Below the pieces are notes generated by a model. The model searched no databases and was not told the origin of the DNA. It saw nothing but the letters and a program-made list of their open reading frames with translations. The position numbers and the translations under genes were made by a program. A stretch of DNA of 64,000 nucleotides from Candidatus Daviesbacteria bacterium (GTDB lineage: Bacteria; Patescibacteriota; Microgenomatia; Daviesbacterales; UBA10151), in the NCBI GenBank assembly GCA_016176405.1, contig JACOXG010000013.1, forward strand, positions 398 to 64,397, in the 5' to 3' direction. Below are positions 8,248 through 63,233 of the stretch, in pieces (within the stretch, counting starts at the first letter, position 1; the number at the start of each line of letters is the position of its first letter).

Positions 8248-8283
8248 AGATCCTTCGACCCTTCGACTTCGCTCAGGATGATC
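8248..8283 (-). repeat. copy of the dispersed GTCATCCTGAGCG..CGAAGGATC repeat family (minus orientation)
   Basis: The reverse complement reads atcatcctgagcgaagtcgaagggtcgaaggatctc, matching copies at 18571, 41049, 46217, 55267 and 63208. Confidence 0.6.
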
Positions 8284-8300
8284 CGCCTCTGGCGGATCAT
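8278..8300 (+). terminator. perfect 10-bp stem / 3-nt loop hairpin (ATGATCCGCC tct GGCGGATCAT) followed by a T-rich run; candidate intrinsic terminator for the upstream gene
   Basis: Inverted repeat read directly from the sequence, followed by ttgctttctc. Confidence 0.4.
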
Positions 8301-8439
8301 TTGCTTTCTCAGCTCAAATTTTTTACACTTAACACTGCTGACTATAATATGCGACTCATTTTGGCTTTTTTTATTGGTTTCATAGGCTTTTTTTATACTG
8401 CAGAACTGCTCCAAAGATTTAGTAGATTTTGGCCCTTTT

Positions 8440-10086
8440 TTGCTTTTACTAAATCAATCTATCCTTGAGGGTGGATTAAATGTTTTATCTGCCAATTTTT
8501 TAATTGGAGCAGGCTTAGGTCTAATTATGCATCATCTTTTATCCCGCCGCTATATTTTCTTTGAGAAATTGGAGAAAGATTTTATTATTAGACATGAAAC
8601 AAAAGTAGAAAGGCTACTAGAAATTTTTCCAGGAGCCTTTACTTGGCTGGCTCTCACCTCACCAATTTGGTTATCCTTTACTCTCCCTTTTGCTGTAGCC
8701 TATTTAATTTTAATTGCAGATACCTATTGGCTACTTACTGCCTTAAGAATTGGTATTTTGATATTAATTGGTTTTAGGAAAATGGAGGTGGCTAAAAAGC
8801 AAGATTGGTTATCTAATCTTAAAAAAGATTTCCCCAATGATTGGGGAAAATATTATCATTTAATACTAGTTCCCACCTATAAAGAAGCACCGTATATACT
8901 TACTACCACCTTCCAAGGAATTATTAATTCCAACTATCCTAAAGATAAAATTTTGCTGGCAGTCGGGTTTGAGGAAAGAGATGAGCCTAAAAAAATTAGA
9001 GATACCCAAAAAAATCTTAAAAAAATTGAAGGAAAAATTGTCGCAGTTTACACTACCATTCACCCTTATAACCTTCCTGGAGAAGTGGCTGGCCAAGGCT
9101 CAAATAAAAACTGGATGATCAAAAATATTGTCCCTCAGCTTAAAGCAAAAGGTATTAAGGTAGAAGATGTTTTTGTGACCACTTTAGATGCTGATTTTGT
9201 CCTACATCGGGAGTTTTTAGCAGGGGCTTTATATAAATACTTATCCCAACCAAACGAAAAAAGAGACAAAAGAACTTTTACTGGAGTATTTTTATATCAC
9301 AATAACTATTGGCAAACTCCAGCTCCGATGAGGCTGATGGCCACTGGTACTTCCTTTTGGCAACTGGCTGAGATGGTTGGTTCTGATAAATATATGAACT
9401 ACTCTTCGATGTCCATTTCTTTAAAAGCTCTCTTAGATGTGGGTGGCTGGATACCAGATAAGGTCAACGATGATAACGGGTTTTATTGGAAGGCCTATTT
9501 TCACTTTAATGGTGACTATAAAGTCATCCCACATTTTTTACCAATTTCTGCTGATGCAGTCCAAGATACCACCCTCCTTAAAACCTTTCAAAACCAATAT
9601 CTACAAATTAAAAGATGGGCTTATGGGGTTGAACATATCCCCTATGTGGTTACACAGTATTTTAAAAAAGAAATCGATTTTTGGGATAAAACTGATAAGT
9701 TACTTTTTAAAATTTGGGGGGATTTGAAATGGGGCTTTTTGGCAATCTTTGTAACATTCGGCAGTATCATTATTCCTTTAGTTAATCCTGATTTTAAAGA
9801 ATCTGTATTGTCTATTAATCTCCCAATAGTCTCGTCTTGGATATTAACAGCGGCATTTTTAGGGCTTTTTGCCACCATCTTTGTTCATGAAAAAACTGCT
9901 CCCAAAAGACCAAGAAATTGGTCGCCCTTTCAAAAAATATTTTCCTATATTCAGTGGCTTTTGGTACCAATTATTTTAATTACTATCTCATCCCTACCTG
10001 CCATTGATGCCCAAACCTCCTTAATGTTTGGTAAAAAATTGGAGTTTAGGGTAACCAATAAAGCGCGGTTATCAGAAAAAGTATAA
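8440..10086 (+). CDS. membrane glycosyltransferase, family 2-like (cellulose-synthase-like architecture)
   Basis: N- and C-terminal transmembrane blocks flank a cytoplasmic domain with GT-A-like features (ILLAVGFEERDEP, TTLDADFVL as a DxD-type motif, QIKRWAYG resembling QxxRW). Confidence 0.5.
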   Translation: MLLLNQSILEGGLNVLSANFLIGAGLGLIMHHLLSRRYIFFEKLEKDFIIRHETKVERLLEIFPGAFTWLALTSPIWLSFTLPFAVAYLILIADTYWLLTALRIGILILIGFRKMEVAKKQDWLSNLKKDFPNDWGKYYHLILVPTYKEAPYILTTTFQGIINSNYPKDKILLAVGFEERDEPKKIRDTQKNLKKIEGKIVAVYTTIHPYNLPGEVAGQGSNKNWMIKNIVPQLKAKGIKVEDVFVTTLDADFVLHREFLAGALYKYLSQPNEKRDKRTFTGVFLYHNNYWQTPAPMRLMATGTSFWQLAEMVGSDKYMNYSSMSISLKALLDVGGWIPDKVNDDNGFYWKAYFHFNGDYKVIPHFLPISADAVQDTTLLKTFQNQYLQIKRWAYGVEHIPYVVTQYFKKEIDFWDKTDKLLFKIWGDLKWGFLAIFVTFGSIIIPLVNPDFKESVLSINLPIVSSWILTAAFLGLFATIFVHEKTAPKRPRNWSPFQKIFSYIQWLLVPIILITISSLPAIDAQTSLMFGKKLEFRVTNKARLSEKV

Positions 10087-10088
10087 AA

Positions 10089-10454
10089 ATGGCCAACTTT
10101 AAAGAAAATTTTGAACAAATGAATCATTTTTCCCAATTTTTCTTATTAACAATCTCTTTACAAATATTTTTGGCGTTTTTGATCAGCCTTTTTATATTAT
10201 TTTCCTCAAAATTTTTACCGCCAAAATTACCACTATTCTATTCCCTACCTTGGGGAGAAAAACAGCTGGCTACTCACCAACAACTTTTTATCCTCCCTGC
10301 TATTTTAGTGTTGATTACTCTTATTAATATTGCCGTCGCCTGGCAACTACATCTTTCTCAATCATTTTTCAAAAAAATATTAATCTTTAGCTCATTGGTA
10401 ACAAGCATGATTCTAGTCATTACTTTTATTAAAATTATTTTAATTTTTATTTGA
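10089..10454 (+). CDS. small membrane protein
   Basis: 121 aa, three hydrophobic helices, starts 3 nt after the upstream gene. Confidence 0.35.
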   Translation: MANFKENFEQMNHFSQFFLLTISLQIFLAFLISLFILFSSKFLPPKLPLFYSLPWGEKQLATHQQLFILPAILVLITLINIAVAWQLHLSQSFFKKILIFSSLVTSMILVITFIKIILIFI

Positions 10455-10464
10455 AAAAAGTTTT

Positions 10465-11508
10465 ATGAGTTTTGTAATACCTGCACTGATTGCTTTTTTG
10501 GCAACTGTTTTAGCAATTTTCCCAACAATTAAAATTGCCAAAAAATTTAATTTATTAGATCATCCTCAAAAAAGACCTCACCCAGCTCATATTCAAAATA
10601 GAGTTGTTCCTAGGGCCGGTGGATTAGCTATATTTTTTGGTCTGATATCCTCTATCTTACTTTTTATCTCTCCCTCACCACCAATTATCGGGATTATTTT
10701 TGGACTATTAATTCTATTGATAGTGGGCTTACTTGATGACAGATACCCTCACCTTTCCCCATATCTAAGATTGGTCAGTCAATTTATGGCGGCCTTTTTT
10801 GTTGTTTCTCAAGGGGTAGATATAAAATTTATCACCAATCCTTTAGGTGGGATTATTAATTTTTCTCCCCTTTTTGCTTCTATCTTAGCCTTGCTTTGGA
10901 TTGTCTGGGTAATGAATATGATCAACTGGTCTAAAGGGGTTGATGGACAAATGCCAGGCATTACCACTATGGCAGCCATTATCCTAGGACTACTCTCCAT
11001 TAAACTCAACTTTTTGGGAGATCCTTCCCAAGCCGATATAGCCAAACTGTCATTTATCACCGCCGCCTCAAGCTTGGGTTTGTTAATTTTTAATTGGTAT
11101 CCTGCCAAAATTTTTCCTGGATTTTCCGGATCAACCATTTTAGGTTTTATGATTGCAGTTTTGGCCATTCTCTCCGGAGCAAAACTAGCCACAGCCGGTC
11201 TGGTCCTTTTAATTCCTGCCACAGATTTTGCTTATACCTTTTTTCGAAGAGTCTTACAAGGCAAATCTCCTGTTTGGGGAGATCAAGGACACCTCCACCA
11301 TAAACTTTTACAAATAGGTTTATCTCACTCACAAATCTCCTTGTTTTATATTTTGGGATCTGCTATCTTAGGGGCAGTTGCCCTAAGTTTAAATAGTCGA
11401 GGTAAACTATTTGCTGCTTTGCTTTTGGCAACTCTAATTTTGGGTGGGATCTTATGGTTAAACTTTTTTGGGGCCTTATCAAAGCGTCGCGCCCCAGACA
11501 GTGGATAA
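10465..11508 (+). CDS. glycosyltransferase family 4 (MraY/WecA-like polyprenyl-phosphate N-acetylhexosamine-1-phosphate transferase)
   Basis: LLDHPQKRPHPAHIQNRVVPRAGGLAIFFG and VGLLDDRYPHLSP resemble WecA/MraY motifs; NMINWSKGVDG is NxxNxxDGxDG-like; about 10 TM helices. Confidence 0.65.
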   Translation: MSFVIPALIAFLATVLAIFPTIKIAKKFNLLDHPQKRPHPAHIQNRVVPRAGGLAIFFGLISSILLFISPSPPIIGIIFGLLILLIVGLLDDRYPHLSPYLRLVSQFMAAFFVVSQGVDIKFITNPLGGIINFSPLFASILALLWIVWVMNMINWSKGVDGQMPGITTMAAIILGLLSIKLNFLGDPSQADIAKLSFITAASSLGLLIFNWYPAKIFPGFSGSTILGFMIAVLAILSGAKLATAGLVLLIPATDFAYTFFRRVLQGKSPVWGDQGHLHHKLLQIGLSHSQISLFYILGSAILGAVALSLNSRGKLFAALLLATLILGGILWLNFFGALSKRRAPDSG

Positions 11509-12380
11509 AAAATTTTGCTCTTTTTGCCGCCCTAATTTTTTCTGGCACCTTGTTTGACCCCATCAGCCAATTAAAAACCTTACAAGCTTTTGCTCTTTTT
11601 TGCGCTTTTTCCTCAGCCACCTATTTATTAAATGATGTTTTTGATATTGAAAGGGATAAACTTCATCCATTTAAAAAAAGGCGGGCCATTACCTCCGGAA
11701 TAATCCCGGTCTGGTTGGCCGTTACAATATCACTTTTAATTGTGGCCATAGGACTACCCATATCCTATCAACTCTCCCCTTCCTTTTTCTTTGCTGCCCT
11801 GGCCTATTTAGTCTTACAACTTTTCTATTCTGCCTATTTAAAACAGATTATTTTAATTGATGTCTTGGTGATTGCAGCAGGATTTGTCTTAAGGGTTTAT
11901 GCCGGGGTTTGGGCAATTGATGCCCACTTAAATGTTTGGTTTTTACTCTCTGTCACCTCATTTGCTCTCTTTTTGGCAATTGGTAAAAGACGATCTGAAA
12001 GAACTTTAATGGAAGCTCAAGCTGGACGTCACCGAGAAACTTTACTCCATTATCCCCCCAACTTATTGGATAGCTTAACCACCATGTTTGCCAATTCTAC
12101 CTGGTTAACCTATGCCTTTTTTGCCTTTTTGCAACCTCCCATTTCTGCCCCTCATGCCTTTATTACCTTTTTAGGTGTGTTTGAACTGCCTCAAGGAGAG
12201 GCTAAATATTTAATGGTCACTGTTCCTGTTGTGATATATGCAGTCATGAGATATCTCTATATTATCTATGAGAAAAAAGAAGGTGAATCACCTGAAAGGG
12301 TGATATTAACTGATATGCCTCTTTTGATAACTGTGATTATTTGGTTAGGTCTAGTTTTAGGAATAATTTATTATTTGTAA
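11454..12380 (+). CDS. UbiA-family prenyltransferase, decaprenyl-phosphate phosphoribosyltransferase (DPPR synthase)-like
   Basis: N-terminal RPRQWIKN plus LNDVFDIERDKLHPFKKRRAITSG (NDxxDxxxD...HPxKxxRxxxSG signature); polytopic membrane protein. Confidence 0.65.
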   Translation: MVKLFWGLIKASRPRQWIKNFALFAALIFSGTLFDPISQLKTLQAFALFCAFSSATYLLNDVFDIERDKLHPFKKRRAITSGIIPVWLAVTISLLIVAIGLPISYQLSPSFFFAALAYLVLQLFYSAYLKQIILIDVLVIAAGFVLRVYAGVWAIDAHLNVWFLLSVTSFALFLAIGKRRSERTLMEAQAGRHRETLLHYPPNLLDSLTTMFANSTWLTYAFFAFLQPPISAPHAFITFLGVFELPQGEAKYLMVTVPVVIYAVMRYLYIIYEKKEGESPERVILTDMPLLITVIIWLGLVLGIIYYL

Positions 12381-12381
12381 T

Positions 12382-13203
12382 TTATTGCTCTTCTTTTTCA
12401 ATATAAGTTGCGGAAACATAGCCTTCTGTACCGTCAGCCAATCTGACTCTGGCCCAAGATGGCAACTCTTCTAAAAGTATTAGTTTGTCTCCTGGTTTAA
12501 CCTGAGTTATTTCTTTACCTGCCAAAGATGGCTTATCTCTAACTCTTAAAAAGCCGGTAGGAGTATCTAAGACCACAACTTCCAGAGTTTGGGTAATAAC
12601 TGGAGTCTGAACACTGGTCAAATCTGCCTCAGATAACTGAAGATCAATTAAGACAATTAAATTATAACCTTCAGGCAGATTGGCCTTGGTATTTCTTTCT
12701 AAATAATTTGAATGGTTTAAGCTGATGTTATGCTCACCGCTATCGATTGCGACAGTGATGGGAGTTTTACCATAAGCTTTGCCATCTATCTTAAGTTCTG
12801 CCTCTTGAGGATTTGATAAAACAGTGATGCCTCTGCCCTTGGTTAAAGTCAATATTTCCCCAACTGATGAATAAGGATCCTGTGATAACTCCCTACTAAC
12901 TACAGTAATAGTGCCCTCATTAAGTTTCACCTTTCCCTGCCAGAAAAGATTATCTTTTTGTATCTTTAAATCATATTCCTTTGGCTCTAAACCTTTACTT
13001 TCAAATGGGGTGATACCAATTTCCTTCCCATCAAGTATCACTGCTGCTCCTTCGGGTGCAGAAGTCACAGTCAGACCACTTAGCCCTTTAATACCCAATA
13101 AGAATTCTAAACCCTGACCTCCAAATCTGATCAAAAGAAAAAGAATACTGATTAAAAGCAAAAATAAAATTATAGTTTTTTTCATCTTTGACAACTTTAG
13201 CAA
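12382..13203 (-). CDS. secreted/anchored protein with PEGA domains and a C-terminal bacterial SH3-like domain
   Basis: N-terminal signal/TM segment; PEGAAVILDGKEIGITP is a PEGA motif; repeated beta-rich modules; C-terminal GYVSATYI SH3b-like. Confidence 0.45.
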   Translation of the reverse strand: MLKLSKMKKTIILFLLLISILFLLIRFGGQGLEFLLGIKGLSGLTVTSAPEGAAVILDGKEIGITPFESKGLEPKEYDLKIQKDNLFWQGKVKLNEGTITVVSRELSQDPYSSVGEILTLTKGRGITVLSNPQEAELKIDGKAYGKTPITVAIDSGEHNISLNHSNYLERNTKANLPEGYNLIVLIDLQLSEADLTSVQTPVITQTLEVVVLDTPTGFLRVRDKPSLAGKEITQVKPGDKLILLEELPSWARVRLADGTEGYVSATYIEKEEQ

Positions 13204-13240
13204 AATCTGCTAATATTCACAACTTATCCGGGCCCAAAGC

Positions 13241-13876
13241 TTGAAAAGATACCAAAAAAACCTTCTGTCTAGGAAAGTTTCTGACGGGGTCGCCCCAATT
13301 TTTAAACTTTCTAAAATTAAGTCCAGGTTTTCCAAAAAGTTTAGCAGGCTTACTATTATCTCCTTAATGCTGATATTTTTGTCAGGTTATTACCCGACAT
13401 TCACTTTTCCACCCCTTAAATCATCTCAAGTTCGCGCCAATACTCAAGAAGAAAAAGGAGAAGTTGTGGCTTTATCGTTTCCGAAACCTTTAGTACTACC
13501 CCATCCAGGTTATTTATCAGCCAAATTTTACAGATGGCACCCAGGAGTTGACATAGCCACAGGTTTAGGGATGCCCATCCATCCTATTACTGAAGGGATT
13601 ATAGAAGATACTGGTTTTGGTTTTTGGGGATATGGTAACAATGTCCTAATTTCCCATGCTAATGGATTTAAATCATTTTATGCTCATATGGGAAAAATTT
13701 ATGTTAAAAAGGGACAAACAGTGAGATCGGAAGACACCTTAGGAGAGGTTGGTATGACCGGTCATACCTCAGGTCCTCATACTCATTTAGAAATCACTCA
13801 TAATGGAAATTATATTGATCCTACCACCATCCTACCAGAAATTCCTACCATGCCCAAAATTATTGTTAAGAAATAA
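13241..13876 (+). CDS. M23 family (LytM-like) peptidoglycan endopeptidase
   Basis: HPGVDIA ... GMTGHTSGPHTHLEI, the classic M23 HxxxD / HxH zinc motifs. Confidence 0.8.
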   Translation: MKRYQKNLLSRKVSDGVAPIFKLSKIKSRFSKKFSRLTIISLMLIFLSGYYPTFTFPPLKSSQVRANTQEEKGEVVALSFPKPLVLPHPGYLSAKFYRWHPGVDIATGLGMPIHPITEGIIEDTGFGFWGYGNNVLISHANGFKSFYAHMGKIYVKKGQTVRSEDTLGEVGMTGHTSGPHTHLEITHNGNYIDPTTILPEIPTMPKIIVKK

Positions 13877-14462
13877 TCTCTCCCTCCACAGTTGAGATTG
13901 GTACCCCTCTTAAACCAACCTGTTCTCTTTCTCTGTTAATCAGTCTTTCCAAAAGATTTTTAATTTCAATTGGATAATCAATATATTTTAAAACAATCGA
14001 TCCTCCTCCGGCAGTATGAATCATAATGTTACCATGATGAAAAAATAATCTGTCAATAAAGGTTTGATCAACTTCGAGATGAGTCACCTTATCATATAAA
14101 GCACTCATCAGTTTGACAGAAAAAAGCCCTCTTTTAAAAATAACTCTTCTGGTTGTCAGCAAATACCTATTAGCATGATAGATATGCATGGTACGCAAAA
14201 TGGCAGCCAAAATCATCAGAAAAATAGCCAAGAAAAAAGCCCACATTCTGGCTGATTCTTCTAATCCTAACAGCCAACCTATGCCTAAGCCAATTCCAAA
14301 AAAAAGCATTCCAGGAAAAAGTAAATACATCACAAATTTAGAGCGGATATACGCTCTAGAAAAGGAGGTCACTAAAACTAATTCCTCATCTTCAGACAGA
14401 TATTTGGCAAAAGCTTTTCTTTGTTTCTCAGTAGGAGCTTCCCTGTAGTGATATTTAGCCAT
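13866..14462 (-). CDS. membrane protein with a bacterial PH (bPH_2 / YdbT-like) domain
   Basis: Two TM helices, then RRVIFKRGLFSVK...IMIHTAGGGSIVLKYIDYP typical of the bPH_2 family. Confidence 0.5.
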   Translation of the reverse strand: MAKYHYREAPTEKQRKAFAKYLSEDEELVLVTSFSRAYIRSKFVMYLLFPGMLFFGIGLGIGWLLGLEESARMWAFFLAIFLMILAAILRTMHIYHANRYLLTTRRVIFKRGLFSVKLMSALYDKVTHLEVDQTFIDRLFFHHGNIMIHTAGGGSIVLKYIDYPIEIKNLLERLINREREQVGLRGVPISTVEGEIIS

Positions 14463-14851
14463 CAGCTAAATTGTAGCACGATTTGACGTTCCCGCGGTCC
14501 ATCAAATTCTATTAACACAACTTTTTGCCAAGTTCCTAAGATAAGTTTTCCATGTTCTACTGGAACAGTTAAAGATGTGCCAATTAAGGCAGATGAAATA
14601 TGATCGGGGGTATGTCCTGGATCATGTGGATGCTTGTAATTCAATTTTGGAACCATTTTCTCAAAAGCAGCCAAATAATCCTGATCAGTCCCGGGGTCCA
14701 AATCAGCAGTAGTAAGGGCTGCTGTAGTATGAGTTAAAAATAAATTACAAATCCCATCCTTAATTTCTAATTTCTCAATTTCCTCATTAACTTGATCGGT
14801 AATATCCACTACTTCTCTTTTTTTAGCAGTTTTTACAGAAATTTTAATCAC
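14462..14851 (-). CDS. YjbQ/UPF0047 family protein (secondary thiamine-phosphate synthase-like)
   Basis: TAALTTADLDPGTDQDYL...HPHDPGHTPDHISSALIGTSLTVPV matches the conserved YjbQ core. Confidence 0.7.
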   Translation of the reverse strand: MIKISVKTAKKREVVDITDQVNEEIEKLEIKDGICNLFLTHTTAALTTADLDPGTDQDYLAAFEKMVPKLNYKHPHDPGHTPDHISSALIGTSLTVPVEHGKLILGTWQKVVLIEFDGPRERQIVLQFS

Positions 14852-14869
14852 AACAACTATTATAATGGA

Positions 14870-16516
<1,647 letters not shown>

Positions 16517-16529
16517 TTACCCTTTAAGA

Positions 16530-16823
16530 TTAACCTCCTTTTGCCAGTCCAGTCTGAACAAGAAAATCTAAATCATACATTCCGACCCTATCTACTGGTT
16601 CACCCCTGGCAATTCGAATACCCAAAGTCACACCATAAAAAAGATTCTGCCTCATCCCATGAGCCATAGTATTTATATCGTCATTAGGAAGTCCAGAACT
16701 TAGTAAATCTTCTAATCTTTTTGCTACACTATTTTCGCCTTCGCTATAAGGAAGCTCTGATATTGCATCCATGTGGGCGTTTAAAGCTAATATAGCATTG
16801 TCTAAATTTATTTCTTGGCTCAT
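16530..16823 (-). CDS. hypothetical 97-aa protein encoded between groES and groEL
   Basis: The ORF exactly fills the 314-bp groES-groEL spacer. Its ATG is 4 nt after the groES stop and its stop is 16 nt before the groEL start. I recognise no motif. Confidence 0.45.
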   Translation of the reverse strand: MSQEINLDNAILALNAHMDAISELPYSEGENSVAKRLEDLLSSGLPNDDINTMAHGMRQNLFYGVTLGIRIARGEPVDRVGMYDLDFLVQTGLAKGG

Positions 16824-16827
16824 ATTT

Positions 16828-17151
16828 TTACTCCAAAATTGCCATTAGATCATCAAATTTTACTAATTTTAATTCTTTTCCTTCTACCTTTATTTCATCT
16901 CCACCCCATTTTTTATAAACTACTTTATCTCCATTTTTAACTGGGCATTTGACCACTTTACCATTTTCTAAAACCATGTCATCTCCACAAGCTACAACTG
17001 TTCCCTGAGCTGGTTTTTCTTGAGCAGATTCTGGCAGGATAATTCCGGAGGCAGTGGTACTTTCAGCTTCAGAAGGCTCAACTAACACATAACCCATTAA
17101 GGGTTTTATAGAAATTTTATTTACTTTTTTATTCTTTCTTGCTTTTGTCAT
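16828..17151 (-). CDS. groS: co-chaperonin GroES (Cpn10) with a short basic N-terminal extension
   Basis: IKPLMGYVLVEP...GIILPESAQEKPAQGTVVACG...GDKVVYKKWGG is the typical GroES core; MTKARKNKKVNK precedes the usual start. Confidence 0.9.
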   Translation of the reverse strand: MTKARKNKKVNKISIKPLMGYVLVEPSEAESTTASGIILPESAQEKPAQGTVVACGDDMVLENGKVVKCPVKNGDKVVYKKWGGDEIKVEGKELKLVKFDDLMAILE

Positions 17152-17211
17152 GAAATATTATGGGGCAGACTTGTCCGCCGAAGCCTTATGCGGAGGCGGA
17201 ATCAGGTACAA

Positions 17212-17240
17212 AATATACAAAATTTAGCACTAAATGTCAA
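17212..17240 (-). promoter_or_regulatory. sigma70-type promoter for groES-groEL (TTGACA - 17 nt - TATATT) overlapping a degenerate CIRCE-like inverted repeat
   Basis: The minus strand reads cTTGACAtttagtgctaaattttgTATATTttg. The adjacent TTAGCACT..GTGTTGCTA is a partial CIRCE match. A GC hairpin (TCCGCC..GGCGGA) lies in the 5' leader at 17175-17198. Confidence 0.5.
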
Positions 17241-18156: not shown

Positions 18157-19098
18157 ATGCTTAAATTTATGGATAATTATCCAATGAAAAATCTGACTAC
18201 CTTAAAGATTGGTGGTCCTGCTAAAAAATTTGTCAAAGTTACTAATCCTAATGAATTAATTGAAGCTATAAATTATGCCAAACAAAATAATTTAGAATAT
18301 TTAGTTATTGGTGGAGGAAGCAATCTTTTAGTTTCTGATAAAGGAGTTGATAAATTAATTATCAAAAATGAAATTTTGGGTATTGAACATCAAGGTCAAA
18401 ATATAAAAGTAAAAAGTGGCACAGTTTTGCAAGATTTAGTACATTACTCTATTTCCCATGGGCTGTTGGGAATCCAAAAAATGACAGGAATTCCCGGCAC
18501 AGTTGGTGGAGCAGTTTATGGTAATGCTGGTGCTTATGGCCAAACCATTTCCGACAACATCATTTCTGTTGTCGTCCTGAGCGACCGAAGGGAGTCGAAG
18601 GATCTAATTACTTTAAATAAAGATGATTGCAATTTTAATTACCGGGATAGTGGTTTCAAGAAAAATAAATACACTATTCTAGAAGTGAGATTTAGTTTAA
18701 ATACTAATAATCCAACCACCCTAGATCAAGAGGCTAAAGATGTATTATCCAAAAGATTAATTAAATATCCCCCAGGTATTAAATGTCCTGGGTCTTTTTT
18801 CAAAAATATAGTGGCAGAAACTTTACCAAAAGAAATTTTAGAAAAAATTCCATCAGAAAAAATAACCTATGGCAAAATTTCAGCAGGATATTTATTAGAA
18901 AGCGTTGGTGCCAATGGCCAAGTTCTGGATGGAATAGAAATTGCCGGATATCATGCCAATTTATTTATTAATAAAGGCGGTGGCAGCGCCCAAACTTTCT
19001 ACACTTTAGCCAAAAAATATAGCCAAAAGGTAAAAGAAAAATTTGGCATCACCTTAGAACCCGAAGTCCAACTAATCAACCTTCCACCAATATCTTGA
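18157..19098 (+). CDS. murB: UDP-N-acetylenolpyruvoylglucosamine reductase MurB
   Basis: FAD-binding N-terminus (LKIGGPAKKFV, VIGGGSNLLVSD) and C-terminal MurB domain. An in-frame copy of the dispersed repeat lies at 18571-18605 (VVLSDRRESKDL). Confidence 0.8.
   Translation: MLKFMDNYPMKNLTTLKIGGPAKKFVKVTNPNELIEAINYAKQNNLEYLVIGGGSNLLVSDKGVDKLIIKNEILGIEHQGQNIKVKSGTVLQDLVHYSISHGLLGIQKMTGIPGTVGGAVYGNAGAYGQTISDNIISVVVLSDRRESKDLITLNKDDCNFNYRDSGFKKNKYTILEVRFSLNTNNPTTLDQEAKDVLSKRLIKYPPGIKCPGSFFKNIVAETLPKEILEKIPSEKITYGKISAGYLLESVGANGQVLDGIEIAGYHANLFINKGGGSAQTFYTLAKKYSQKVKEKFGITLEPEVQLINLPPIS
18571..18605 (+). repeat. copy of the dispersed GTCATCCTGAGCG..CGAAGGATC repeat family, inside murB in-frame
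   Basis: gtcgtcctgagcgaccgaagggagtcgaaggatct. Confidence 0.55.
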
Positions 19099-40990: not shown

Positions 40991-41048
40991 GCGTAAATCG
41001 TAGCACGTTAGATTAGGAATGCAAGAGAGATCAAAGGTGACATTCTAT

Positions 41049-41113
41049 GTCATCCCTTCGGGTCTGAGCCTCAGGGTCGAAGACCTGAGCGAGTGAAACG
41101 AGTCGAAGGATCT
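41049..41113 (+). repeat. extended copy of the dispersed GTCATCC..CGAAGGATC repeat family
   Basis: gtcatcccttcgggtctgagcctcagggtcgaagacctgagcgagtgaaacgagtcgaaggatct; lies in the rnhA / DUF4012-gene spacer. Confidence 0.55.
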
Positions 41114-41114
41114 A

Positions 41115-46182: not shown

Positions 46183-46210
46183 TGTGGATAACTGATTTGA
46201 CTTATCCACA
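46183..46210. promoter_or_regulatory. pair of inverted perfect DnaA boxes (TGTGGATAA ... TTATCCACA) upstream of dnaA
   Basis: Read directly at 46183-46191 and 46202-46210; the rpmH-dnaA intergenic region is the classic oriC / dnaA-promoter location. Confidence 0.7.
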
Positions 46211-46216
46211 AGTCAA

Positions 46217-46247
46217 ATCATCCTGAGGAGTCTGCGACGAAGGATCT
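46217..46247 (+). repeat. copy of the dispersed repeat immediately upstream of the dnaA start; its GAAGGAT end supplies an SD-like sequence
   Basis: atcatcctgaggagtctgcgacgaaggatct, then catcc ATG. Confidence 0.5.
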
Positions 46248-46252
46248 CATCC

Positions 46253-55183: not shown

Positions 55184-55266
55184 TCTGAACCAATCTGAGA
55201 GAAAGTACTACACAATATACGCTATATTGACAGAAAAAGTTTTCTTGATATGCTGAAATGGTGGTG

Positions 55267-55315
55267 TACCATCCTGAGTACTGAGCGAAGTCGAAGTATC
55301 GAAGGGTAAGGTACA
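55267..55315 (+). repeat. copy of the dispersed repeat with GTACC/GGTAC inverted termini, in the leader of the minus-strand T4SS operon
   Basis: gtaccatcctgagtactgagcgaagtcgaagtatcgaagggtaaggtac. Confidence 0.55.
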
Positions 55316-55480
55316 AAAGGGAATCCAGTGTAAATCTGGAGTCCATGAAGTGGATCGCTTAGCGATCACTTCAGGACCATGAAGTGAACTTTGCTCTACT
55401 TCATGGCTGTGCCGCAACTGTTAAAGCCAGGAGACCGACCACTCCGCCATCTGGCGGATTCTTTCCCGAGCAGGAGCAAT

Positions 55481-56782: not shown

Positions 56783-56863
56783 ATTGTAAATAAACTTTAG
56801 TTAAATTCATCCCAATACCGTCAGGATTATATCAGGATTTAATCAAGCACTTAATTCCGATTT

Positions 56864-56930
56864 ATTGTTAAATTGCTTCATTGTTATATTGTCTTAAAAA
56901 ACAATTTAACAGTTTAACAATATAACAATT
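56864..56930. promoter_or_regulatory. nested inverted repeats (TTGTTAAATTG / TTGTTATATTG ... CAATTTAACA / CAATATAACAA) upstream of a TTGACA-N18-TACACT promoter and GGAAAGG RBS for the giant gene
   Basis: Palindromes read directly from the sequence; a -35-like TTGACA at 56943-56948. Confidence 0.5.
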
Positions 56931-57003
56931 TTATTTGTTGAAGTTGACACTTAGGTTTCCAAGGCTCTACACTAATTAAGGTAGGCCTTGTGGAAAGGCT
57001 TAC

Positions 57004-60000
57004 ATGTCTAATGCTGAAAGATTAAATATGGCAGATGCTATTGCAACAGAAACAGCTGAGCCAAAAGTAGTGGTTACTTCTGAGAAAGACAGCTACCAAA
57101 AAGGCGGCATAATGAGGTGGCTTAAAAGAGGTTCAAAGGCTCAAGTTTTGATGAAACCAGGTGAATTTGAACCTCCCACAGCAACTCAAGATTCTCAAAT
57201 TGAGAATGTGCATGCTCGGAATCAACAAGCAGCTGAGACATCTTCCAAGAGAGAACATATCCTAAAATTACCTGGTTATGATCCAAATAAAGAATATGAG
57301 ATTAGAGAATTGGGGAATGCTGTAATTATTGTTGATCCAGTAACAGGGAAAGAGATAGGTATATTACCAAGAATTGCTGGAGGTAGCCCGGATATACCAG
57401 ATTGGATTACTGAAGCAGCCAAGAGTAAGCCTTTGAGGTTACAGGAAGCTCAAGAGCTTGATCAAATTTATTCAAGGGTTGATCGTTCTAGACTTCCTGG
57501 GCATCAGGTTGGTGAATTAGACCGCATGATTCAGGCAAATCAGAATGAACTCAATACCCTTCAGAGAGAGGTAGAGCAACTGTTTGAAGAAGCAAGCAAT
57601 GACAATATCTTGAATTTTGTCATAAATGATGTAAGAGCTGCTTACATTAAAGCCATTCAACCACCGCCAGCTTCCATTTGGGAAGCGCAACCTCCAACAG
57701 GCCGAGAAATTGATTTGAAAAATTATCAGGAAACATTTTGGGATTTAGGATACGATGTTTTGCGCGATTTATTTTTAAGGGGGGCGGTCGGACCTATTGA
57801 CATAAGAGCGTTACGAGCAAAGTATGAAGGTTTGGGCAGTTATATAGCCTCAAGAGCGGCTGTAGCTATTGATAAGGATTTAAAAGGATTACCATTATCA
57901 CCATCGACTGAGTTAGGAGATCGTATTCTTGAGGGTGTCAAAAGGGAACATGAATATGCAGAAAGCAGAAGAAGAGCAAGAGCCAGTGCTGATGAGATGC
58001 TTAGATATAGTGACTGGAGAGAACGCTTTGATTTTGACTGGGCTCAAAATAGGCCGGAGTTGAGAGCCTCAGTTTTTGCCTGGCTGGAGAAATTTGTTGC
58101 CCATTTACCAGAAGCAACAATAGATGAACTTAACAATGAATCACTGACTTGGAAGCGTAATGCTATCAGTGCTCTGGAAAAAGCTGCCAATAGGCTACGA
58201 ATTTCAGAAAAAGAACCTTTTTACAAAGAACTTAAAAGTACTATTGAAGCATATGTTGAAGTATATCGAGGAGCAAAGTTTTTGGAAACTGATGGTGGGC
58301 TTGAGGCGGCTACAATTGCCTTGGAAGAATTTGCCCATAATTTTAATCCTAAACATGATGCAATATATTTAGGTAATGCTAAATCTGCCATTATTCAAGC
58401 CTTTATGGCTAGAAATCATGGGGCCATATCCGCTAGCACCGTACCCATCACAAGAGATACCGCTCCTACGGGCGCAGCCATTGAAACTATTGAGAAACCT
58501 CAGGCAGGAGACTTGGAAGAGTTTAGAGGTAATATAGAAGAGCAAGCAAAACAATATGCAGCCACTCACCAGTTATATATCAGGGAAGCTGATTTTGAAA
58601 CAAGAATTAGACAAAGTAACGGGGGTTATAGTTGGGATGATGTTATCGAAGACTTATTACTCGAAGATAGAAGGGGTATGAATGCCGCTAATGCTTTAAC
58701 AGACCCGATTGCTCAAGCTGAAGCTATAGCCAGAGTAGTAACCAGAACAGGTGTTTTCCAAAGAATTAAAGAAAGGTTGGATAGAGAAGATGAAGCGAGA
58801 GATGGAAGAAGCTTTGCCGAACTCACAGATGATGAAAGAAGAGAAGAGATTAGGTTTAGGATCAGAACAAAGATGTTTCTGACAGGATATAGAAATCTGG
58901 TAGACGACATTGATCTTACCACAGATCCGGTAGACAAAGACAGGAAATTATGGAATTGGCTAAAAGGATACAACCTAAGAAGAGAAATCCAGGGTCATAC
59001 GTTGTTTTTCCCCAGCTACTGGGATGAAGTCAGATTAAGCATAAATAGACCAACCAAATTAGTAGATAGGGCTCTCCAAGAAATCAATAAAGCTGAACAA
59101 ATGAGGAGATTGAATCCCATTCAAGCAGAAGCCATCCGAAACAGTATCAAAAACGAAATGAGAGCTAGAGGGGCGGATAAAGAAGTTGACAGAATTGAAT
59201 CCTTAATAAGTCCGCTTAATAGAGACAAGGCTTTATGGAGATGGGTTGATAAGTATAATGCAGCCAGAAAAGACCGTGGGGAGGAACCTTGGTATGCCGG
59301 TGATTGGGATAGAGCTCTACCTGAAGACGAGCTTGAGGCCATGATTGAGGAAGTAGATCCTTTTAGAGGGGTATTACGCATTGATGGCTTAACAGATCAA
59401 GAGATTAATACAGCCATAGAAAATCTTAATTGGACAGATCCCGCACAACCCAATTTTATTGGAAGTGGATTAACTGCTGAACAAATTGAAACAGCCAAGA
59501 GAGAAATGTTGGAAGATGCTTTATTTGATAAACAACAACGAGAAACTGAGGCTGAACGAGCTTACAATATTAACAGAGCTTACCAGAAATTCTTAGGAAT
59601 TGATGCCAGATGGGGTGGTATGTCTATAAGGGAGATTAATGATGAGGGAGAGATGTTCCTGAAAAATGTCTGGGAGAAAGCTGAAGAAATATTGAAGGAG
59701 AAGATTGATAATGAGGAAGAAGAAACAGAAGAAAAAGTAGCTGCCCTTGAAGCAGCTTTAAGAGCCAGAGGGGGTTTAACAGATGCTGAGATAGAGACAA
59801 CTCTCATTGAAAGAAGAAGGTTATTAAGAAGGGATTCCACATTCGGAGCCACCTTGGCGCTTAGGGAAATAGGCATTGCTAATGATTTACCCATTTGGAA
59901 TTACTATTACTATAACGACCCTCAACGTATTCAAACTTTTGCTCCCTTGGTGGGATATACACATAATGATAAACCACAAATAATCGATCTTTTGGACAGA

Positions 60001-61419
60001 GGCAGAAGGGAAATGAGAGCGGTTTGGGATTATCTGGCAGATACTTACATGGATGGTAGAGTCTTGATAGTCAGAGATGAGCCGAATGCTGATGTTAATG
60101 AAAATGGTCAGCCAAAAGACTTTCATCAAGAAAGATGGGATCGGGCCAGGGTCATTAATGAGGCTGGAGTACAAGCCCTAAGAGAAGTATTTGAATCAAG
60201 ATTTATGTTGTCAACTAGCGGAGGGATAGAAGTAGTAGATTTAATCTCTAAGATAGGAGACTTAGGCATATATGATTTGCTTTGGGAAATGGGTTGTAAG
60301 GATTTTAGGGAATTTCAGGGATTTATTAAAAGACGAGATGAAGTGGAACTTAGAAGACAAAGTTTTTGGAATATTAGAGAATGGAGAGATCCCATTTCTT
60401 ATGCTAAAAGACTAAGAGGTGGAGGTGGAGCAATAGTATATCTTCGAGGAGGAGAGGTAAAAGGGCAACAACGTGAGCCAGGCGTACTTCAGGAACCGAT
60501 GATGGGTGCTTATAAATTTAGAGATGAATATGTGAATCGAGAGCATTGGGTAAGTAGTGACATAAGGAATAAACTAGATCAGACTACTGCGGAGTTTAGG
60601 AGAATACTCCAAGAGATAATTAATAATGACCAGAACCTAAGCAAACTTACTGAACAGGAGCGAGATAAACTGATAGAGGTAGGAGCAGGAGTGTTAATTA
60701 CCCTTATAAAATTCATGGATGCCCTGAGGTATAAGATGAATAGAGCCGGACTGGCTCCTAAAAACTGGAAATTAGACAATGAGCTGAACTTCAGACATTA
60801 TGCTGTGGAGTTATTAAAAAGGGTGTCAATTGAAGGCCGAGCAGCTATCTTAGGTGGCGGTGAAAAATTAGGGGAGCAAGATTTAGGTTATGCTGTACAA
60901 GGTAGAAGTCCACTGACTATTAAGATATTCGAAAATTTTTTCAGAACCAGCTCCTACCATATCTTAGTAGAAAAAGATCGTAAAGTTTTTGATCAGATGG
61001 GACAAGAGGTTAAAGCCAGGATGGATACTAAAAGAAGAGAGCTAGATGCTCAACCCTTGCCTGTCGCAATTCAAACAAAAATTAATAATAGGAGAAATCG
61101 TTTAAGAGCCTTGGGTATGGGTACAAGGATAGATAGATTAATAAATCGGGGAGTACTTTCACAATCAGAAATTGATTCATTAACAGATATTCATTTACGA
61201 TTCGAAATGGACAACAAAAGAAAAGAGGAGTTGAAGTCTAGAGGGGTACCTGATGAAGAAATAGATTCATTTCTTAATTTAAACCAAGAGCTTCGGAGAA
61301 TGAGGAATCAATACATAAATGAAGAGCTCCATAGGCAGTTTTATGGGGAATGGTCTGCTAAATTGGCAGAAGTTGCCGAGCAGTTAGAGAAGGTCGGATC
61401 GTATAAACTTGGGGTGTAA
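57004..61419 (+). CDS. giant (1471 aa) highly charged Glu/Arg/Asp-rich hypothetical protein, no signal peptide or TM, no motif I recognise
   Basis: A single uninterrupted ORF with a strong RBS; no Walker or HUH motif recognised; embedded in the T4SS-like cluster. Confidence 0.6.
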   Translation: MSNAERLNMADAIATETAEPKVVVTSEKDSYQKGGIMRWLKRGSKAQVLMKPGEFEPPTATQDSQIENVHARNQQAAETSSKREHILKLPGYDPNKEYEIRELGNAVIIVDPVTGKEIGILPRIAGGSPDIPDWITEAAKSKPLRLQEAQELDQIYSRVDRSRLPGHQVGELDRMIQANQNELNTLQREVEQLFEEASNDNILNFVINDVRAAYIKAIQPPPASIWEAQPPTGREIDLKNYQETFWDLGYDVLRDLFLRGAVGPIDIRALRAKYEGLGSYIASRAAVAIDKDLKGLPLSPSTELGDRILEGVKREHEYAESRRRARASADEMLRYSDWRERFDFDWAQNRPELRASVFAWLEKFVAHLPEATIDELNNESLTWKRNAISALEKAANRLRISEKEPFYKELKSTIEAYVEVYRGAKFLETDGGLEAATIALEEFAHNFNPKHDAIYLGNAKSAIIQAFMARNHGAISASTVPITRDTAPTGAAIETIEKPQAGDLEEFRGNIEEQAKQYAATHQLYIREADFETRIRQSNGGYSWDDVIEDLLLEDRRGMNAANALTDPIAQAEAIARVVTRTGVFQRIKERLDREDEARDGRSFAELTDDERREEIRFRIRTKMFLTGYRNLVDDIDLTTDPVDKDRKLWNWLKGYNLRREIQGHTLFFPSYWDEVRLSINRPTKLVDRALQEINKAEQMRRLNPIQAEAIRNSIKNEMRARGADKEVDRIESLISPLNRDKALWRWVDKYNAARKDRGEEPWYAGDWDRALPEDELEAMIEEVDPFRGVLRIDGLTDQEINTAIENLNWTDPAQPNFIGSGLTAEQIETAKREMLEDALFDKQQRETEAERAYNINRAYQKFLGIDARWGGMSIREINDEGEMFLKNVWEKAEEILKEKIDNEEEETEEKVAALEAALRARGGLTDAEIETTLIERRRLLRRDSTFGATLALREIGIANDLPIWNYYYYNDPQRIQTFAPLVGYTHNDKPQIIDLLDRGRREMRAVWDYLADTYMDGRVLIVRDEPNADVNENGQPKDFHQERWDRARVINEAGVQALREVFESRFMLSTSGGIEVVDLISKIGDLGIYDLLWEMGCKDFREFQGFIKRRDEVELRRQSFWNIREWRDPISYAKRLRGGGGAIVYLRGGEVKGQQREPGVLQEPMMGAYKFRDEYVNREHWVSSDIRNKLDQTTAEFRRILQEIINNDQNLSKLTEQERDKLIEVGAGVLITLIKFMDALRYKMNRAGLAPKNWKLDNELNFRHYAVELLKRVSIEGRAAILGGGEKLGEQDLGYAVQGRSPLTIKIFENFFRTSSYHILVEKDRKVFDQMGQEVKARMDTKRRELDAQPLPVAIQTKINNRRNRLRALGMGTRIDRLINRGVLSQSEIDSLTDIHLRFEMDNKRKEELKSRGVPDEEIDSFLNLNQELRRMRNQYINEELHRQFYGEWSAKLAEVAEQLEKVGSYKLGV

Positions 61420-61433
61420 TTTAAGGATGAATA

Positions 61434-63212
61434 CTAAGGTTTTTTGAGCCTCCACTTCAAAGGATTCCAGGTAGAAGCACTTCTATCTATAGCTTGAAAT
61501 ACCCCAGGTCTAACAGGGCCATACTCAAATCCTCCCGTAGAGGGATCGAAACGATATCCATACTCTCCAAAAATACCCCTCTTTATATTTCCTGAAGCTT
61601 CTGTGACAGCACCAGTTGACTGCCCATAATATGTTCGACCGCTTGCTACACCACCGGAAATTTCCTGTCCTAGAAATTGTCCTGCCTGACCCATTCTACC
61701 AATAGTACTAACTACAATGTCTGGAATTTTGGGAAGTGCCATTAATGCCCCAAAAGCCAAAAGAAGATTAATGAAATTTAAATCCAATCCTCCAAGCAAT
61801 GGAAATGTCTTTTCACCTGTGATTTGAGTATTAGTTTGGGCGGAAACAATAAAACTATTGTTATCTACATAGTTTGATTGTGAAATTTTTAAGGGATAGT
61901 CATTTTTTACAATGCCCGGACCTAAAAGAAAGGCCACAAAATAAAATACCGCCAAAACTGCAGGGAATACTAATATATTTGCCAACATATTTAATATCCA
62001 GGCAGTTGCTATACCTTGCCTTCCTGGTAAGGCTGCTGCCAGAAATTGGAAGGGAGCACTTATTGTCAGAAAGATAATCGTCAAGTAGGTTGTTAGAAGC
62101 CTAAGCAATAACTTTAACATCTGGTAAATTAAGGCCAAGGTTGCTACAAAGCTAATAATGAACCCTAAAAAGAATGTGGGGGCGCCTGCCCCAGCCCCGA
62201 TTGCTATTAAACTAACGGCGGGACCTAAAAATAGACTAAGAGGACCCAGAGCGGCAGGTACACCTCCTGCCAAAGGTGCTATGAGGTGAGCGGATAAGAG
62301 TCCTGCTACTATTCTTAAGGTACCTTGAGCATCGCCTAATTTATCCCAAACAGATCCTAAAGCCTCAGATGCTCTCTCTTGTGTGACTATTCCTACAAGG
62401 GGGCTAAATATAGATAAAACATTCTCTCTGGAGATTTTATTGACCAAATTTGTTCTTTCTGGGTCATCTGTTTTTCCTTGGGCAGCGGCAAAATAATAAC
62501 CTACCATATTTGTTCCCACAAAGGCCATATCTGAAACCAGGCCTGCTAAGAAATAACTAAAGGTAATTAAAATTAATCCAATCACCAATCCTGGTAGAGC
62601 TGCCTGAGCAGTAATGACTGTTTGAGGATTAATTCTTTGTCTAAACATCACCATTAGCCCAATAATCACAAAAATAATGGTCATAATTACATAAGAGATA
62701 TTTCTGGATACCTGCCATAAGGCTAAAATAGGACGTAATACTCCCTCTCCGGATCCTACCACTTGAGCATTAACCTGTTTCACTACTCTAAACTGATCTC
62801 CAAAGGAAGCCAGGTAATCAACAGTTCTAACAGGCGGATTCATGTATAAAGCTGTAATTAAAGAGGTGGTTGTTCCCAAAGCTCCGTTAGATAAATTGGT
62901 TTGGGATAAAATAGGAACTCCCTGAATTGCTCCTTGCGCATTTTTAGTGATCTGATAAGTCAAACATGGTTGGCCGATAAAGGAAGAGCCAACAGTTAGA
63001 CAGGAAAAAGTATGAAACATGTTGTGGACTAAAAGATCTGTATAAAGGGGGGAGGTAGGAGAGATAGAGGTGGGAAGTTGGAGGTTGGAAGATGGATATT
63101 GAGGTGGGAAGTTGGAGGTTGGAAGAGCACTGGGAGTAGCAGTTTGAGCATTAGCAATGGGAATATTAAATATTAAATAGCAAATAGTAAATAATGCCAG
63201 TACCACTGTCAT
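61434..63212 (-). CDS. VirB6/TrbL-like polytopic membrane protein with an N-terminal signal peptide and a Pro/Ser/Thr-rich extracellular segment
   Basis: Likely start at MTVVLALFTICYLIFNIPIANA|Q (signal peptide); the ORF track extends to 63308 through a repeat-element copy. At least 8 TM helices arranged as in VirB6/TrbL; sits next to the pilin-like and VirB4 genes. Confidence 0.5.
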   Translation of the reverse strand: MTVVLALFTICYLIFNIPIANAQTATPSALPTSNFPPQYPSSNLQLPTSISPTSPLYTDLLVHNMFHTFSCLTVGSSFIGQPCLTYQITKNAQGAIQGVPILSQTNLSNGALGTTTSLITALYMNPPVRTVDYLASFGDQFRVVKQVNAQVVGSGEGVLRPILALWQVSRNISYVIMTIIFVIIGLMVMFRQRINPQTVITAQAALPGLVIGLILITFSYFLAGLVSDMAFVGTNMVGYYFAAAQGKTDDPERTNLVNKISRENVLSIFSPLVGIVTQERASEALGSVWDKLGDAQGTLRIVAGLLSAHLIAPLAGGVPAALGPLSLFLGPAVSLIAIGAGAGAPTFFLGFIISFVATLALIYQMLKLLLRLLTTYLTIIFLTISAPFQFLAAALPGRQGIATAWILNMLANILVFPAVLAVFYFVAFLLGPGIVKNDYPLKISQSNYVDNNSFIVSAQTNTQITGEKTFPLLGGLDLNFINLLLAFGALMALPKIPDIVVSTIGRMGQAGQFLGQEISGGVASGRTYYGQSTGAVTEASGNIKRGIFGEYGYRFDPSTGGFEYGPVRPGVFQAIDRSASTWNPLKWRLKKP

Positions 63213-63233
63213 CCTGAGCGCAGCGAAGGATCT
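63208..63233 (+). repeat. copy of the dispersed repeat overlapping the start codon of the VirB6-like gene
   Basis: gtcatcctgagcgcagcgaaggatct. Confidence 0.55.

Follow-up and report, generated by a model that had tools for sequence, protein, structure and literature searches.

Short tagged DNA hairpins dispersed in a Candidatus Daviesbacteria contig are probable sites of Ssn-type GIY-YIG nucleases

The DNA analysed here is a 64-kb stretch from Candidatus Daviesbacteria (the window; GC ~0.37), in which a short palindromic repeat recurs at dispersed positions, one of them inside murB. A Pfam scan of the window returned only housekeeping and type IV secretion system (T4SS) genes, with DUF4012, PrgI and T4SS-pilin proteins encoded. 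Its MurB was identical to a protein of Candidatus Daviesbacteria, a CPR bacterium. No Rfam family was matched at gathering thresholds across the whole window, and no tRNA or tmRNA was found there. The original prediction, made from the sequence alone, had reported six sites of the repeat; the motif was present at all six, essentially where it had been placed, and our count of units was seven. The arm CATYCTGAG (at most one mismatch) followed within 75 nt by CGAAGRATC was observed five times, compared to 0.007 expected per shuffle, which excludes chance. CATYCTGAG occurred six times (1.0 expected; none of 100 shuffles reached six), and exact CGAAGGATC occurred five times (0.12 expected).

Only two of the seven units were canonical. 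The first, TGTCATCCTGAGCGCAGCGAAGGATCTC (63207..63234, + strand), comprised the tag TGTC, the stem ATCCT/AGGAT, a tandem GA/AG, the mini-hairpin GCGCAGC and the tail CTC; it matched the core of the family exactly and folded as predicted. Its inverted partner, TGTCATTCTGAGGCCAAAGGCCGAAGAATCTC (63247..63278, minus strand), had the stem ATTCT/AGAAT and the inner hairpin GGCC-AAA-GGCC. The two units formed a tail-to-tail doublet with a 12-nt spacer (63235-63246). The doublet (63207-63278) folded well as single-stranded DNA (ssDNA) on either strand (z = -3.6 and -4.1), and its halves were unlike each other yet each self-complementary, as in doublets outside the window. The copy at 63208-63233 had been described as overlapping the start codon of a VirB6-like gene. 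The probable ATG does lie inside the unit, but the site is a doublet whose partner at 63247-63278 had been missed, and the VirB6-like label found no support, as the product of this open reading frame (ORF; 61434-63308, minus strand) matched no Pfam family. The first 34 codons of the ORF (63207-63308) ran through the doublet (CHSEAKGRRISRLILRSFAALRMT), and the ATG within the unit's ATGAC (63209-63211, minus strand) would begin a signal-peptide-like N-terminus, MTVVLALFTICYLIFNIPIANA followed by Q. Judged from the sequence, the ORF is probably over-extended through the doublet, with its true start at the ATG in the unit.

The other five units were degenerate, nested or tag-mutated, and those at 46216, 18570 and 8247 were also changed in their inner parts. 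The two-layer unit AATCATCCTGAGGAGTCTGCGACGAAGGATCTC (46216..46248, + strand; CCT-GA-G-GA-GTCTGC-GA-C-GA-AGG) was degenerate, carried the tag AATC instead of TGTC and ended 5 nt before the dnaA ATG (46253); layered variants akin to it, such as GGAGCGAAGCGAC, were found repeatedly outside the window. The murB unit TGTCGTCCTGAGCGACCGAAGGGAGTCGAAGGATCTA (18570..18606, + strand; ORF 18157-19098) encoded VVLSDRRESKDL and was indeed in frame, with a duplicated 3' arm and an altered tag (TGTCgT). Another degenerate unit, GATCATCCTGAGCGAAGTCGAAGGGTCGAAGGATCTC (8247..8283, minus strand), with the tag GATC, lay in the spacer between two + strand genes. A GC-rich perfect hairpin at 8283-8301 (GATCCGCC-tct-GGCGGATC), downstream of the gene at 7480-8217, adjoined the tag end of this unit; it may be a terminator-like structure or part of the element. 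The composite unit at 41048..41114 (+ strand) was antisense to both flanking genes and contained two cores, TCT-GA-...-GA-AGA and CCT-GA-GCGAGTGAAACGAGTC-GA-AGG, between a single TGTCAT tag and a single GGATCTA tail; inner hairpins of the GTGAAAC type occurred elsewhere too, as did units with several layers. The nested degenerate unit at 55265..55314 (+ strand) lay in a divergent intergenic spacer, with GTACC/GGTAC flanks and an outer CATCCT-GA...GA-AGGGT around GTACT-GA-GCGAAGTC-GA-AGTATC (DNA fold z = -1.9). Across the window, TGTC was found at 63207, 63278 (minus strand), 41048 and 18570, and the tag was degenerate at 46216 (AATC), 8283 (GATC) and 55267 (TACC). The C directly after the palindrome (...AGGAT-C or ...AGAAT-C) was present in six of the seven units, the exception being the nested 55265 copy. 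Most of the window copies look like decayed derivatives.

The canonical architecture of the family was (T)GTC-AT-NNN-GA-GCGNAGC-GA-N'N'N'-AT-C(TC), with a 5-bp stem, two G·A mismatches, a further 2-4 bp and a 3-nt loop (GNA). To assess covariation, we scanned viral contigs with the pattern GTCAT-NNN-GAGCGNAGCGA-NNN-ATC, in which both stem triplets were free. Among the matches listed, the triplets were fully complementary in 168 of 177 distinct sequences, and at least nine triplets were represented (TCT/AGA, CCT/AGG, TCC/GGA, CCC/GGG, GCT/AGC, ACT/AGT, TTC/GAA, GTT/AAC and TTT/AAA). Because the stem triplets covary this strongly, the single strand folds on itself, and the copies form one family whose ends, ATCCT...AGGAT, do pair, as had been proposed. 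The inner stem covaried as well (GCGNAGC, ACGNAGT, GGCGAAGCC and GGCCAAAGGCC, with GGCC-AAA-GGCC in the window), and the inner part could be a further "stem-GA...GA-stem" layer, e.g., G-GA-GCGAAGC-GA-C. GCGNAGC is an extraordinarily stable DNA mini-hairpin, known at ssDNA priming sites and in the hairpin promoter of phage N4 (PMC13037366). The GT before CAT (in nearly all matches) and the C(TC) after AT were kept, though left unspecified in the search.

Doublets outside the window had a T at -1 in 81 of 103 cases, and T at -1 and A at +1 occurred in ~80%; no target-site duplications were found at doublets. Neighbouring units no more than 100 nt apart had their tags outward and tails facing in 108 cases, compared to 17 of the other polarity. 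Since the halves of a doublet often differ yet are each self-complementary, the single unit, and not a long palindrome, is what selection maintains. Tandem orphan 5' arms (TGTCATYCTGAG plus 10-16 nt; TGTCATTCTGAG plus ~16 nt) always preceded a complete unit.

To determine how widely the unit occurs, we scanned IMG/VR viral contigs and GTDB species genomes with 23- to 25-mer patterns, obtaining at least 120 stretches from each. The 23-mer class of the 63207-63234 unit alone gave at least 120 exact matches each among viral contigs and among genome contigs. The IMG/VR matches spanned all GC contents. At least 120 uncultured viral contigs (IMG/VR loci L001-L156) carried exact units, often at several intergenic sites each; a single group of related phages, with capsid and portal-like genes in common, accounts for many of them. 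The GTDB matches listed included Nitrospirota, Chloroflexota, Acidobacteriota, Planctomycetota, Bacteroidota, Gemmatimonadota, alpha-, beta-, gamma- and delta-proteobacteria, Lachnospiraceae, Oscillospiraceae, Verrucomicrobiota and Omnitrophota, together with Saccharibacteria, Gracilibacteria and Uhrbacteria of the candidate phyla radiation (CPR). Unannotated units were also present in plasmids of cyanobacteria, Hymenobacter, Phocaeicola and Granulicella. Thus the repeat is not confined to the window. Its spread is patchy: 80 dnaA loci of diverse bacteria (426 kb) held one strict unit, in the only close relative of the window, and 50,697 genomes of cultured phages gave chance-level matches only, with no credible copy. 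A Bacteroidaceae metagenome-assembled genome (MAG; L171, 3563-4217) contained seven head-to-tail 105-bp repeats, each with a GTT/AAC-stem unit, GTCATGTTGAGCGAAGCGAAACATCTC. Literature searches with exact sequence strings of the repeat returned unrelated primers only.

These data bear on the simplest alternatives, a chance or low-complexity coincidence and the inverted repeats of an ordinary transposon (a MITE, or miniature inverted-repeat transposable element). The internal CGAAGG reiterations do look low-complexity, and the doublets resemble MITE terminal inverted repeats. However, the excess over shuffled sequence and the hundreds of exact 23- to 25-mers across phyla speak against coincidence, and the lack of target-site duplications and the unlike, individually self-complementary doublet halves speak against a MITE. 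We regard the probability of either as negligible. We also rejected a MITE whose autonomous parent would lie between inverted units, as the 10 wider pairs enclosed unrelated ORFs.

To identify a partner gene, we examined the ORFs within 4 kb of units at 276 unit-bearing loci. All-against-all clustering of these 5,751 ORFs revealed no recurrent enzyme and no recurrent transposase; only phage structural genes recurred, which reflects the related viral contigs. A link to four-helix-bundle (23S intervening sequence, IVS) proteins was likewise dropped, because no such ORFs lay near units. At the Gracilibacteria locus L190, a 109-aa GIY-YIG ORF had its stop codon inside a unit. A homolog search with the catalytic domain of this ORF gave 7,997 matches. 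Many of these were on contigs of very small length, which is to be expected when a gene is flanked by repeats, and in ~10 of the best 120 of the 7,997 matches the termini read into units (...DSSLRSE*, MSLRAKRS...). We then fetched six homologs picked solely by the length of their contigs. Dense units were found on both sides of the GIY-YIG gene in all seven loci (the six homologs and the query), amounting to 41 units in 5.6 kb (7.3 per kb), compared to a background of 0.37 per kb, mostly noise, at 79 dnaA loci. The unit variants at these loci were TGTCATTCTGAG...GAAGAATCTC, TGTCACCCTGAGGCGTAAGCCGAAGGGTCTC, TGTCACTCTGAGCGAAGCGAAGAGTC and TGTCATTGCGAGG...GGCAATC. The GIY-YIG genes were insertions between housekeeping genes, e.g., gyrB and gyrA. 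Contigs of several samples (L366-L371) carried an identical 94-aa Ssn-like gene with GTCATTGCGAG-type flanking units between these two genes.

The unit-flanked GIY-YIG proteins were 92-109 aa long with PF01541 as their sole domain. One of them, P0133, was 47% identical to a Neisseria gonorrhoeae gene over 92% of its length (E = 6e-17), and that gene was bracketed by 11 copies of CGTCATTCCCGCGMAVGCGGGAATCYRG, the published repeat NTS around ssnA. Searches of NCBIfam and the PDB with the GIY-YIG proteins revealed no specific model and no solved relative. P0133 was also 69% identical to a Planktothrix agardhii plasmid gene, which was flanked by TGTCATTCTGAGTGAAACGAAGAATCTC units and tandem orphan arms (L374, NZ_LR882964.1 16656-21316; arm arrays at 1880-2190 and 2520-2790 of the locus). 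This Planktothrix gene sits between an MmeI-type restriction-modification gene and the DISARM gene drmA, and on Planktothrix plasmids units also lie inside MmeI-type and BREX PglX genes; units may be linked with defence islands, or simply with variable regions. On the strength of the identity to the Neisseria gene, the size and the single PF01541 domain, we assign the genes flanked by units to the Ssn family.

The Neisseria system offers a direct comparison. Chenal et al. (2025, Nat Commun; PMC11893778) reported that the dRS3-containing Neisseria repeat NTS and related "Ssn-related motifs" (SRM) flank ssnA, whose product is a 94-aa single-domain GIY-YIG protein (cd10448). SsnA binds its hairpin only as ssDNA and on one strand, and binds neither double-stranded DNA nor RNA; homologs from Neisseria and Wolbachia showed strand-specific ssDNA binding and cleavage, with the cut a few nt upstream of the tag (PMC11893778). 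The 3 nt before the palindrome were critical for cleavage and the C just after it for binding, and in Neisseria the system restricts transformation by NTS-bearing DNA (PMC11893778). The NTS-ssnA-NTS layout is like that of an insertion sequence, and the authors suggested domestication (PMC11893778). The present units share with SRM/NTS an oriented hairpin of ~27-30 nt, a palindrome that opens with AT and is immediately preceded by an HGTC tag, the C that follows the palindrome, and many copies that gather at both flanks of a ~95-aa single-domain GIY-YIG gene. They differ in that the stem is broken by tandem G·A/A·G and capped by a GNA triloop, whereas NTS has a continuous 8-bp stem and a 4-nt loop; in the tail, which is CTC as opposed to CYRG or CCA; in being often nested, layered or preceded by orphan 5' arms; and in their occurrence in CPR bacteria and uncultured viral contigs.

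A broader class was described by Di Nocera, De Gregorio and Rocco (2013, BMC Genomics; PMC3733652) as "CGTC-tagged REPs" (repetitive extragenic palindromes), which include Neisseria dRS3 and the Rickettsia repeats RPE-4 and RPE-6. These have a CGTC tag (variants TGTC and CCTC, often TGTC), two A-T pairs at the start of the stem and a 3-nt unpaired tail with the consensus CCA. For the most part they occur as inverted dimers whose halves are 20-100 bp apart, with heterodimers common; they include in-frame intragenic copies and are patchily distributed across phyla (PMC3733652). The present tag TGTC, the stem AT...AT and the short 3' tail (CTC vs the consensus CCA) resemble this class. In the 2013 families the stem measured 8-9 bp, no more than one mismatch being allowed, and the loop 4-5 nt, and pruning discarded sequences with more than one stem mismatch (PMC3733652); units with the G·A bracket would be pruned under this rule because they exceed that number. 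CPR, Acidobacteriota, Chloroflexota and Firmicutes were not listed as carriers in that survey, nor was an enzyme dedicated to the CGTC repeats reported (PMC3733652).

Taken together, we consider it probable that the window repeat belongs to a family of oriented DNA hairpins, an SRM/NTS-like class within the CGTC/TGTC-tagged REP superfamily, and that its units are sites of Ssn GIY-YIG nucleases. The link to the SRM/Ssn system comes from the homology of P0133, which is flanked by G·A-bracketed units, to the NTS-bracketed Neisseria gene, and the assignment is supported because the GTC tag and the 3' C, critical in NTS, are among the positions kept here. The repeat is best described as a variant of this class in sequence and structure, not catalogued before, with a tandem G·A bracket and a GNA mini-hairpin, often nested. 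The units would be cognate sites of small single-domain GIY-YIG Ssn nucleases. A unit-flanked protein such as P0133, P0158 or that of the Planktothrix plasmid (WP_083616022.1) would cut ssDNA bearing TGTCATYCTGAGCGNAGCGAAGRATCTC a few nt 5' of the tag, and would do so on the top strand alone. By analogy with the characterised enzymes, we infer that uncharacterised Ssn homologs would act on the G·A-bracket subclass and that this activity would underlie its spread. As selfish or domesticated DNA, the units would spread and be turned over both around an ssn gene and away from it, which would give rise to units that are solo, nested or paired in tail-to-tail doublets and to tandem orphan 5' arms. 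Now and then a unit would insert in frame where a protein loop tolerates it, as in murB.

Several observations weigh against this assignment. The published SRM search string, HGTCWYN(0-2)YYVSBRHN(0-5)WNVSBRGN(0-2)RNCYNB, a heuristic from 29 genomes (PMC11893778) as opposed to a definition by function, matched nothing in the window, in canonical units or among those beside the seven GIY-YIG loci, and it did match the NTS control. Likewise, a stem of 5 bp, two G·A mismatches and 2-4 bp with a 3-nt loop falls outside the geometry of the 2013 families. A tblastn search of the 64-kb window yielded no Ssn-like ORF; the loci of the relatives (L277-L280) carried no such gene, and no Daviesbacteria-labelled homolog was among the best 120 homologs of a Patescibacteria Ssn. 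The tags of four of the seven window copies were altered, which by the Neisseria mutagenesis would impair cleavage. Cleavage of the G·A-bracket subclass by Ssn is argued from the Neisseria and Wolbachia enzymes.

Some of these points raise the possibility that the window units are inert relics of the SRM/Ssn system, the nuclease having been lost from a small CPR genome; this concerns present activity, not the identity of the repeat. The degenerate, nested or tag-mutated state of five of the seven copies, the lack of an ssn gene in the window and in related loci, and the lack of a Daviesbacteria label among the best 120 homologs are in keeping with loss, and the authors of the 2013 survey themselves suggested that CGTC families may be heading towards extinction (PMC3733652). 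However, the two units at 63207-63278 remain perfectly canonical, related Daviesbacteria show recent differences in which units, and of what subtype, stand at the murB and dnaA sites, other Patescibacteria encode an Ssn-like nuclease with flanking units, and the portion of this genome inspected is 64 kb only. We therefore hold inert relics to be possible, at rather less than even odds.

To establish how the units are oriented to genes, we tallied solo units outside the window (~270 loci); 36 were sense and 31 were antisense, and each GC class gave a similar balance. In the window, two copies were antisense to their flanking genes, and three were sense and just upstream of or within genes (46216, 55265 and 18570). 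The repeat had been described as concentrated in 5' leaders, which these counts contradict; in a compact genome every intergenic spacer is upstream of some gene, so leader concentration is not a property of the family. The related suggestion of a shared regulatory RNA motif would make the unit a structured RNA in 5' leaders, acting as a hairpin for translation or stability, as a provider of a Shine-Dalgarno sequence, or as an ops-like signal for a NusG paralog. The three sense copies, the position of the 3'-arm AGGA at 8 nt from the dnaA start codon, the occurrence of GCGNAGC in Bacteroides ops elements too and the covarying stem would all fit a leader RNA. Against it stand the unbiased solo units, the two antisense window copies, the units that lie within coding sequences or are arrayed about a nuclease gene, and Rfam, which gave no match beyond chance level even at E = 10 (permissive scan around the doublet; E >= 1.4) and only a tRNA in 10 outside loci. 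Moreover, the characterised member of the nuclease family, Neisseria SsnA, binds ssDNA and not the RNA form of its hairpin (PMC11893778). The absence of strand bias relative to genes, together with the fixed polarity of doublets, argues for a DNA-level element, and we consider a leader RNA very unlikely.

The anatomy of the unit also recalls a classical REP/REPIN mobilised by the IS200-like Y1 tyrosine transposase RAYT: an imperfect palindrome that is recognised as ssDNA and bears a short, unpaired tag on its 5' side, inverted doublets, intergenic and occasional intragenic positions, a single-copy enzyme gene bracketed by repeats, and probably a domesticated selfish system. The tag, however, is (T/C)GTC and runs into AT, not GTAG, and the gene flanked by units is a GIY-YIG nuclease in seven of seven loci, not an HUH/Y1 transposase; no transposase recurred within 4 kb of units at the 276 loci. 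In the 2013 survey, too, no RAYT was flanked by CGTC units, which "seem lacking a dedicated transposase" (PMC3733652). REP sequences, finally, are lineage-specific, whereas the present unit is near-identical across phyla, and mobilisation by RAYT strikes us as even more improbable than a leader RNA. Rickettsia palindromic elements (RPE) and the small dispersed repeats (SDR) that Elhai et al. reportedly described in cyanobacteria in 2008 resemble the present unit as very small palindromes with in-frame gene insertion or mutual nesting and presence/absence polymorphism. RPE-1-type elements are 100-150 bp long, unlike the present unit, and SDRs are reported only in Nostocaceae.

Comparison with relatives, which the original prediction had proposed as a check, revealed differences in unit presence at both the murB and the dnaA sites. 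In the alignment of Daviesbacteria MurB proteins, the window's unit fell at a hypervariable site after GQTISDxIxxV, occupied by native VxxYDGxxI in some proteins and by VILSEAKDL, VILNEVKDL or VVLSERSESKDL in others; further homologs had other GTCAT-type elements there (VIPASEPESI, VIASPKGVAIS), and one homolog had a full doublet. The murB copy is at an insertion hot spot. At the DNA level, the relative L278 had a canonical 27-nt unit exactly where L277 had 27 unrelated nt, and both segments began with GTC. A second hypervariable insertion site in MurB, after IKNEIxGI (~18380-18400 in the window), held peptides such as TTSKVGFLVPSEGKSDFPEVEGDSFEV and ARGDSEEGSRRVAAANDVSEDARRD in relatives, which probably stem from in-frame insertion of small palindromic elements of other kinds; the window MurB had no insert at this site.

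In the dnaA leader of the window, the AGGA of the unit's 3' arm lay 8 nt before the ATG and may act as its Shine-Dalgarno sequence, as had been proposed. The relative L280 (70% DnaA identity) kept the DnaA boxes, had unrelated sequence in place of the window unit with no comparable AGGA, and carried a different unit subtype ~120 nt further upstream. The boxes themselves, two in inverted orientation (46183-46191, TGTGGATAA; 46202-46210, TTATCCACA), lie directly upstream of dnaA in the window, and the cumulative GC skew reached its minimum near 50-52 kb; the boxes and the skew switch suggest a replication origin within the window. The occupied and empty segments of the dnaA leader measured 41 and 37 nt (46211-46252 in the window vs L280). 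Thus, a unit appears to replace sequence instead of adding to it, with 27 vs 27 nt at murB and 41 vs 37 nt at dnaA. Turnover was also seen further afield: the related viral contigs L025, L013 and L102 differed in the copy number of orphan 5' arms, and two Thermodesulfovibrio MAGs (L364 and L365) differed by a ~100-nt block with units. As presence, position and subtype all vary between relatives, the suggestion of a "small mobile or recombinogenic repeat" named the right general category. Effects on neighbouring genes, such as the ribosome-binding site of dnaA and the start codon at 63209-63211, would be a by-product.

The replacements bear on a bolder proposal, in which the nuclease drives a "patch" element. 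The G·A-bracket units would then be an actively propagating subclass, and their Ssn partner would have a role beyond cutting: once ssDNA was cleaved just 5' of the tag, short-patch, template-directed repair or conversion would write a copy of the unit into the break. Such copying would explain why the replacement in murB is of equal length and why target-site duplications are lacking, and it would account for the tandem orphan 5' arms and the recursive nesting. We think this scheme unlikely, at well below the probability given to inert relics; if true, it would amount to a new ultra-small mobile element that rewrites protein loops in minimal CPR genomes and is carried by phages too.

Assigned to the SRM/Ssn class of hairpins, the repeat is explained by established biology, with no new category of biology involved. 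A puzzling repeat is thereby placed in a defined system, as hairpin sites of site-specific ssDNA nucleases of current biotechnological interest. The analysis extends that system by a distinct and very widespread class of tandem-G·A/mini-hairpin units that the published SRM string misses, by its occurrence in CPR/Patescibacteria and uncultured viral contigs, by evidence that the enzyme "missing" for the CGTC-type repeats of 2013 applies to the G·A-bracket class too, and by in-frame hot spots in the essential gene murB. In genome annotation, spurious extensions at N-termini and peptides like "VILSEAKDL" or "DSSLRSE" are explained by it.

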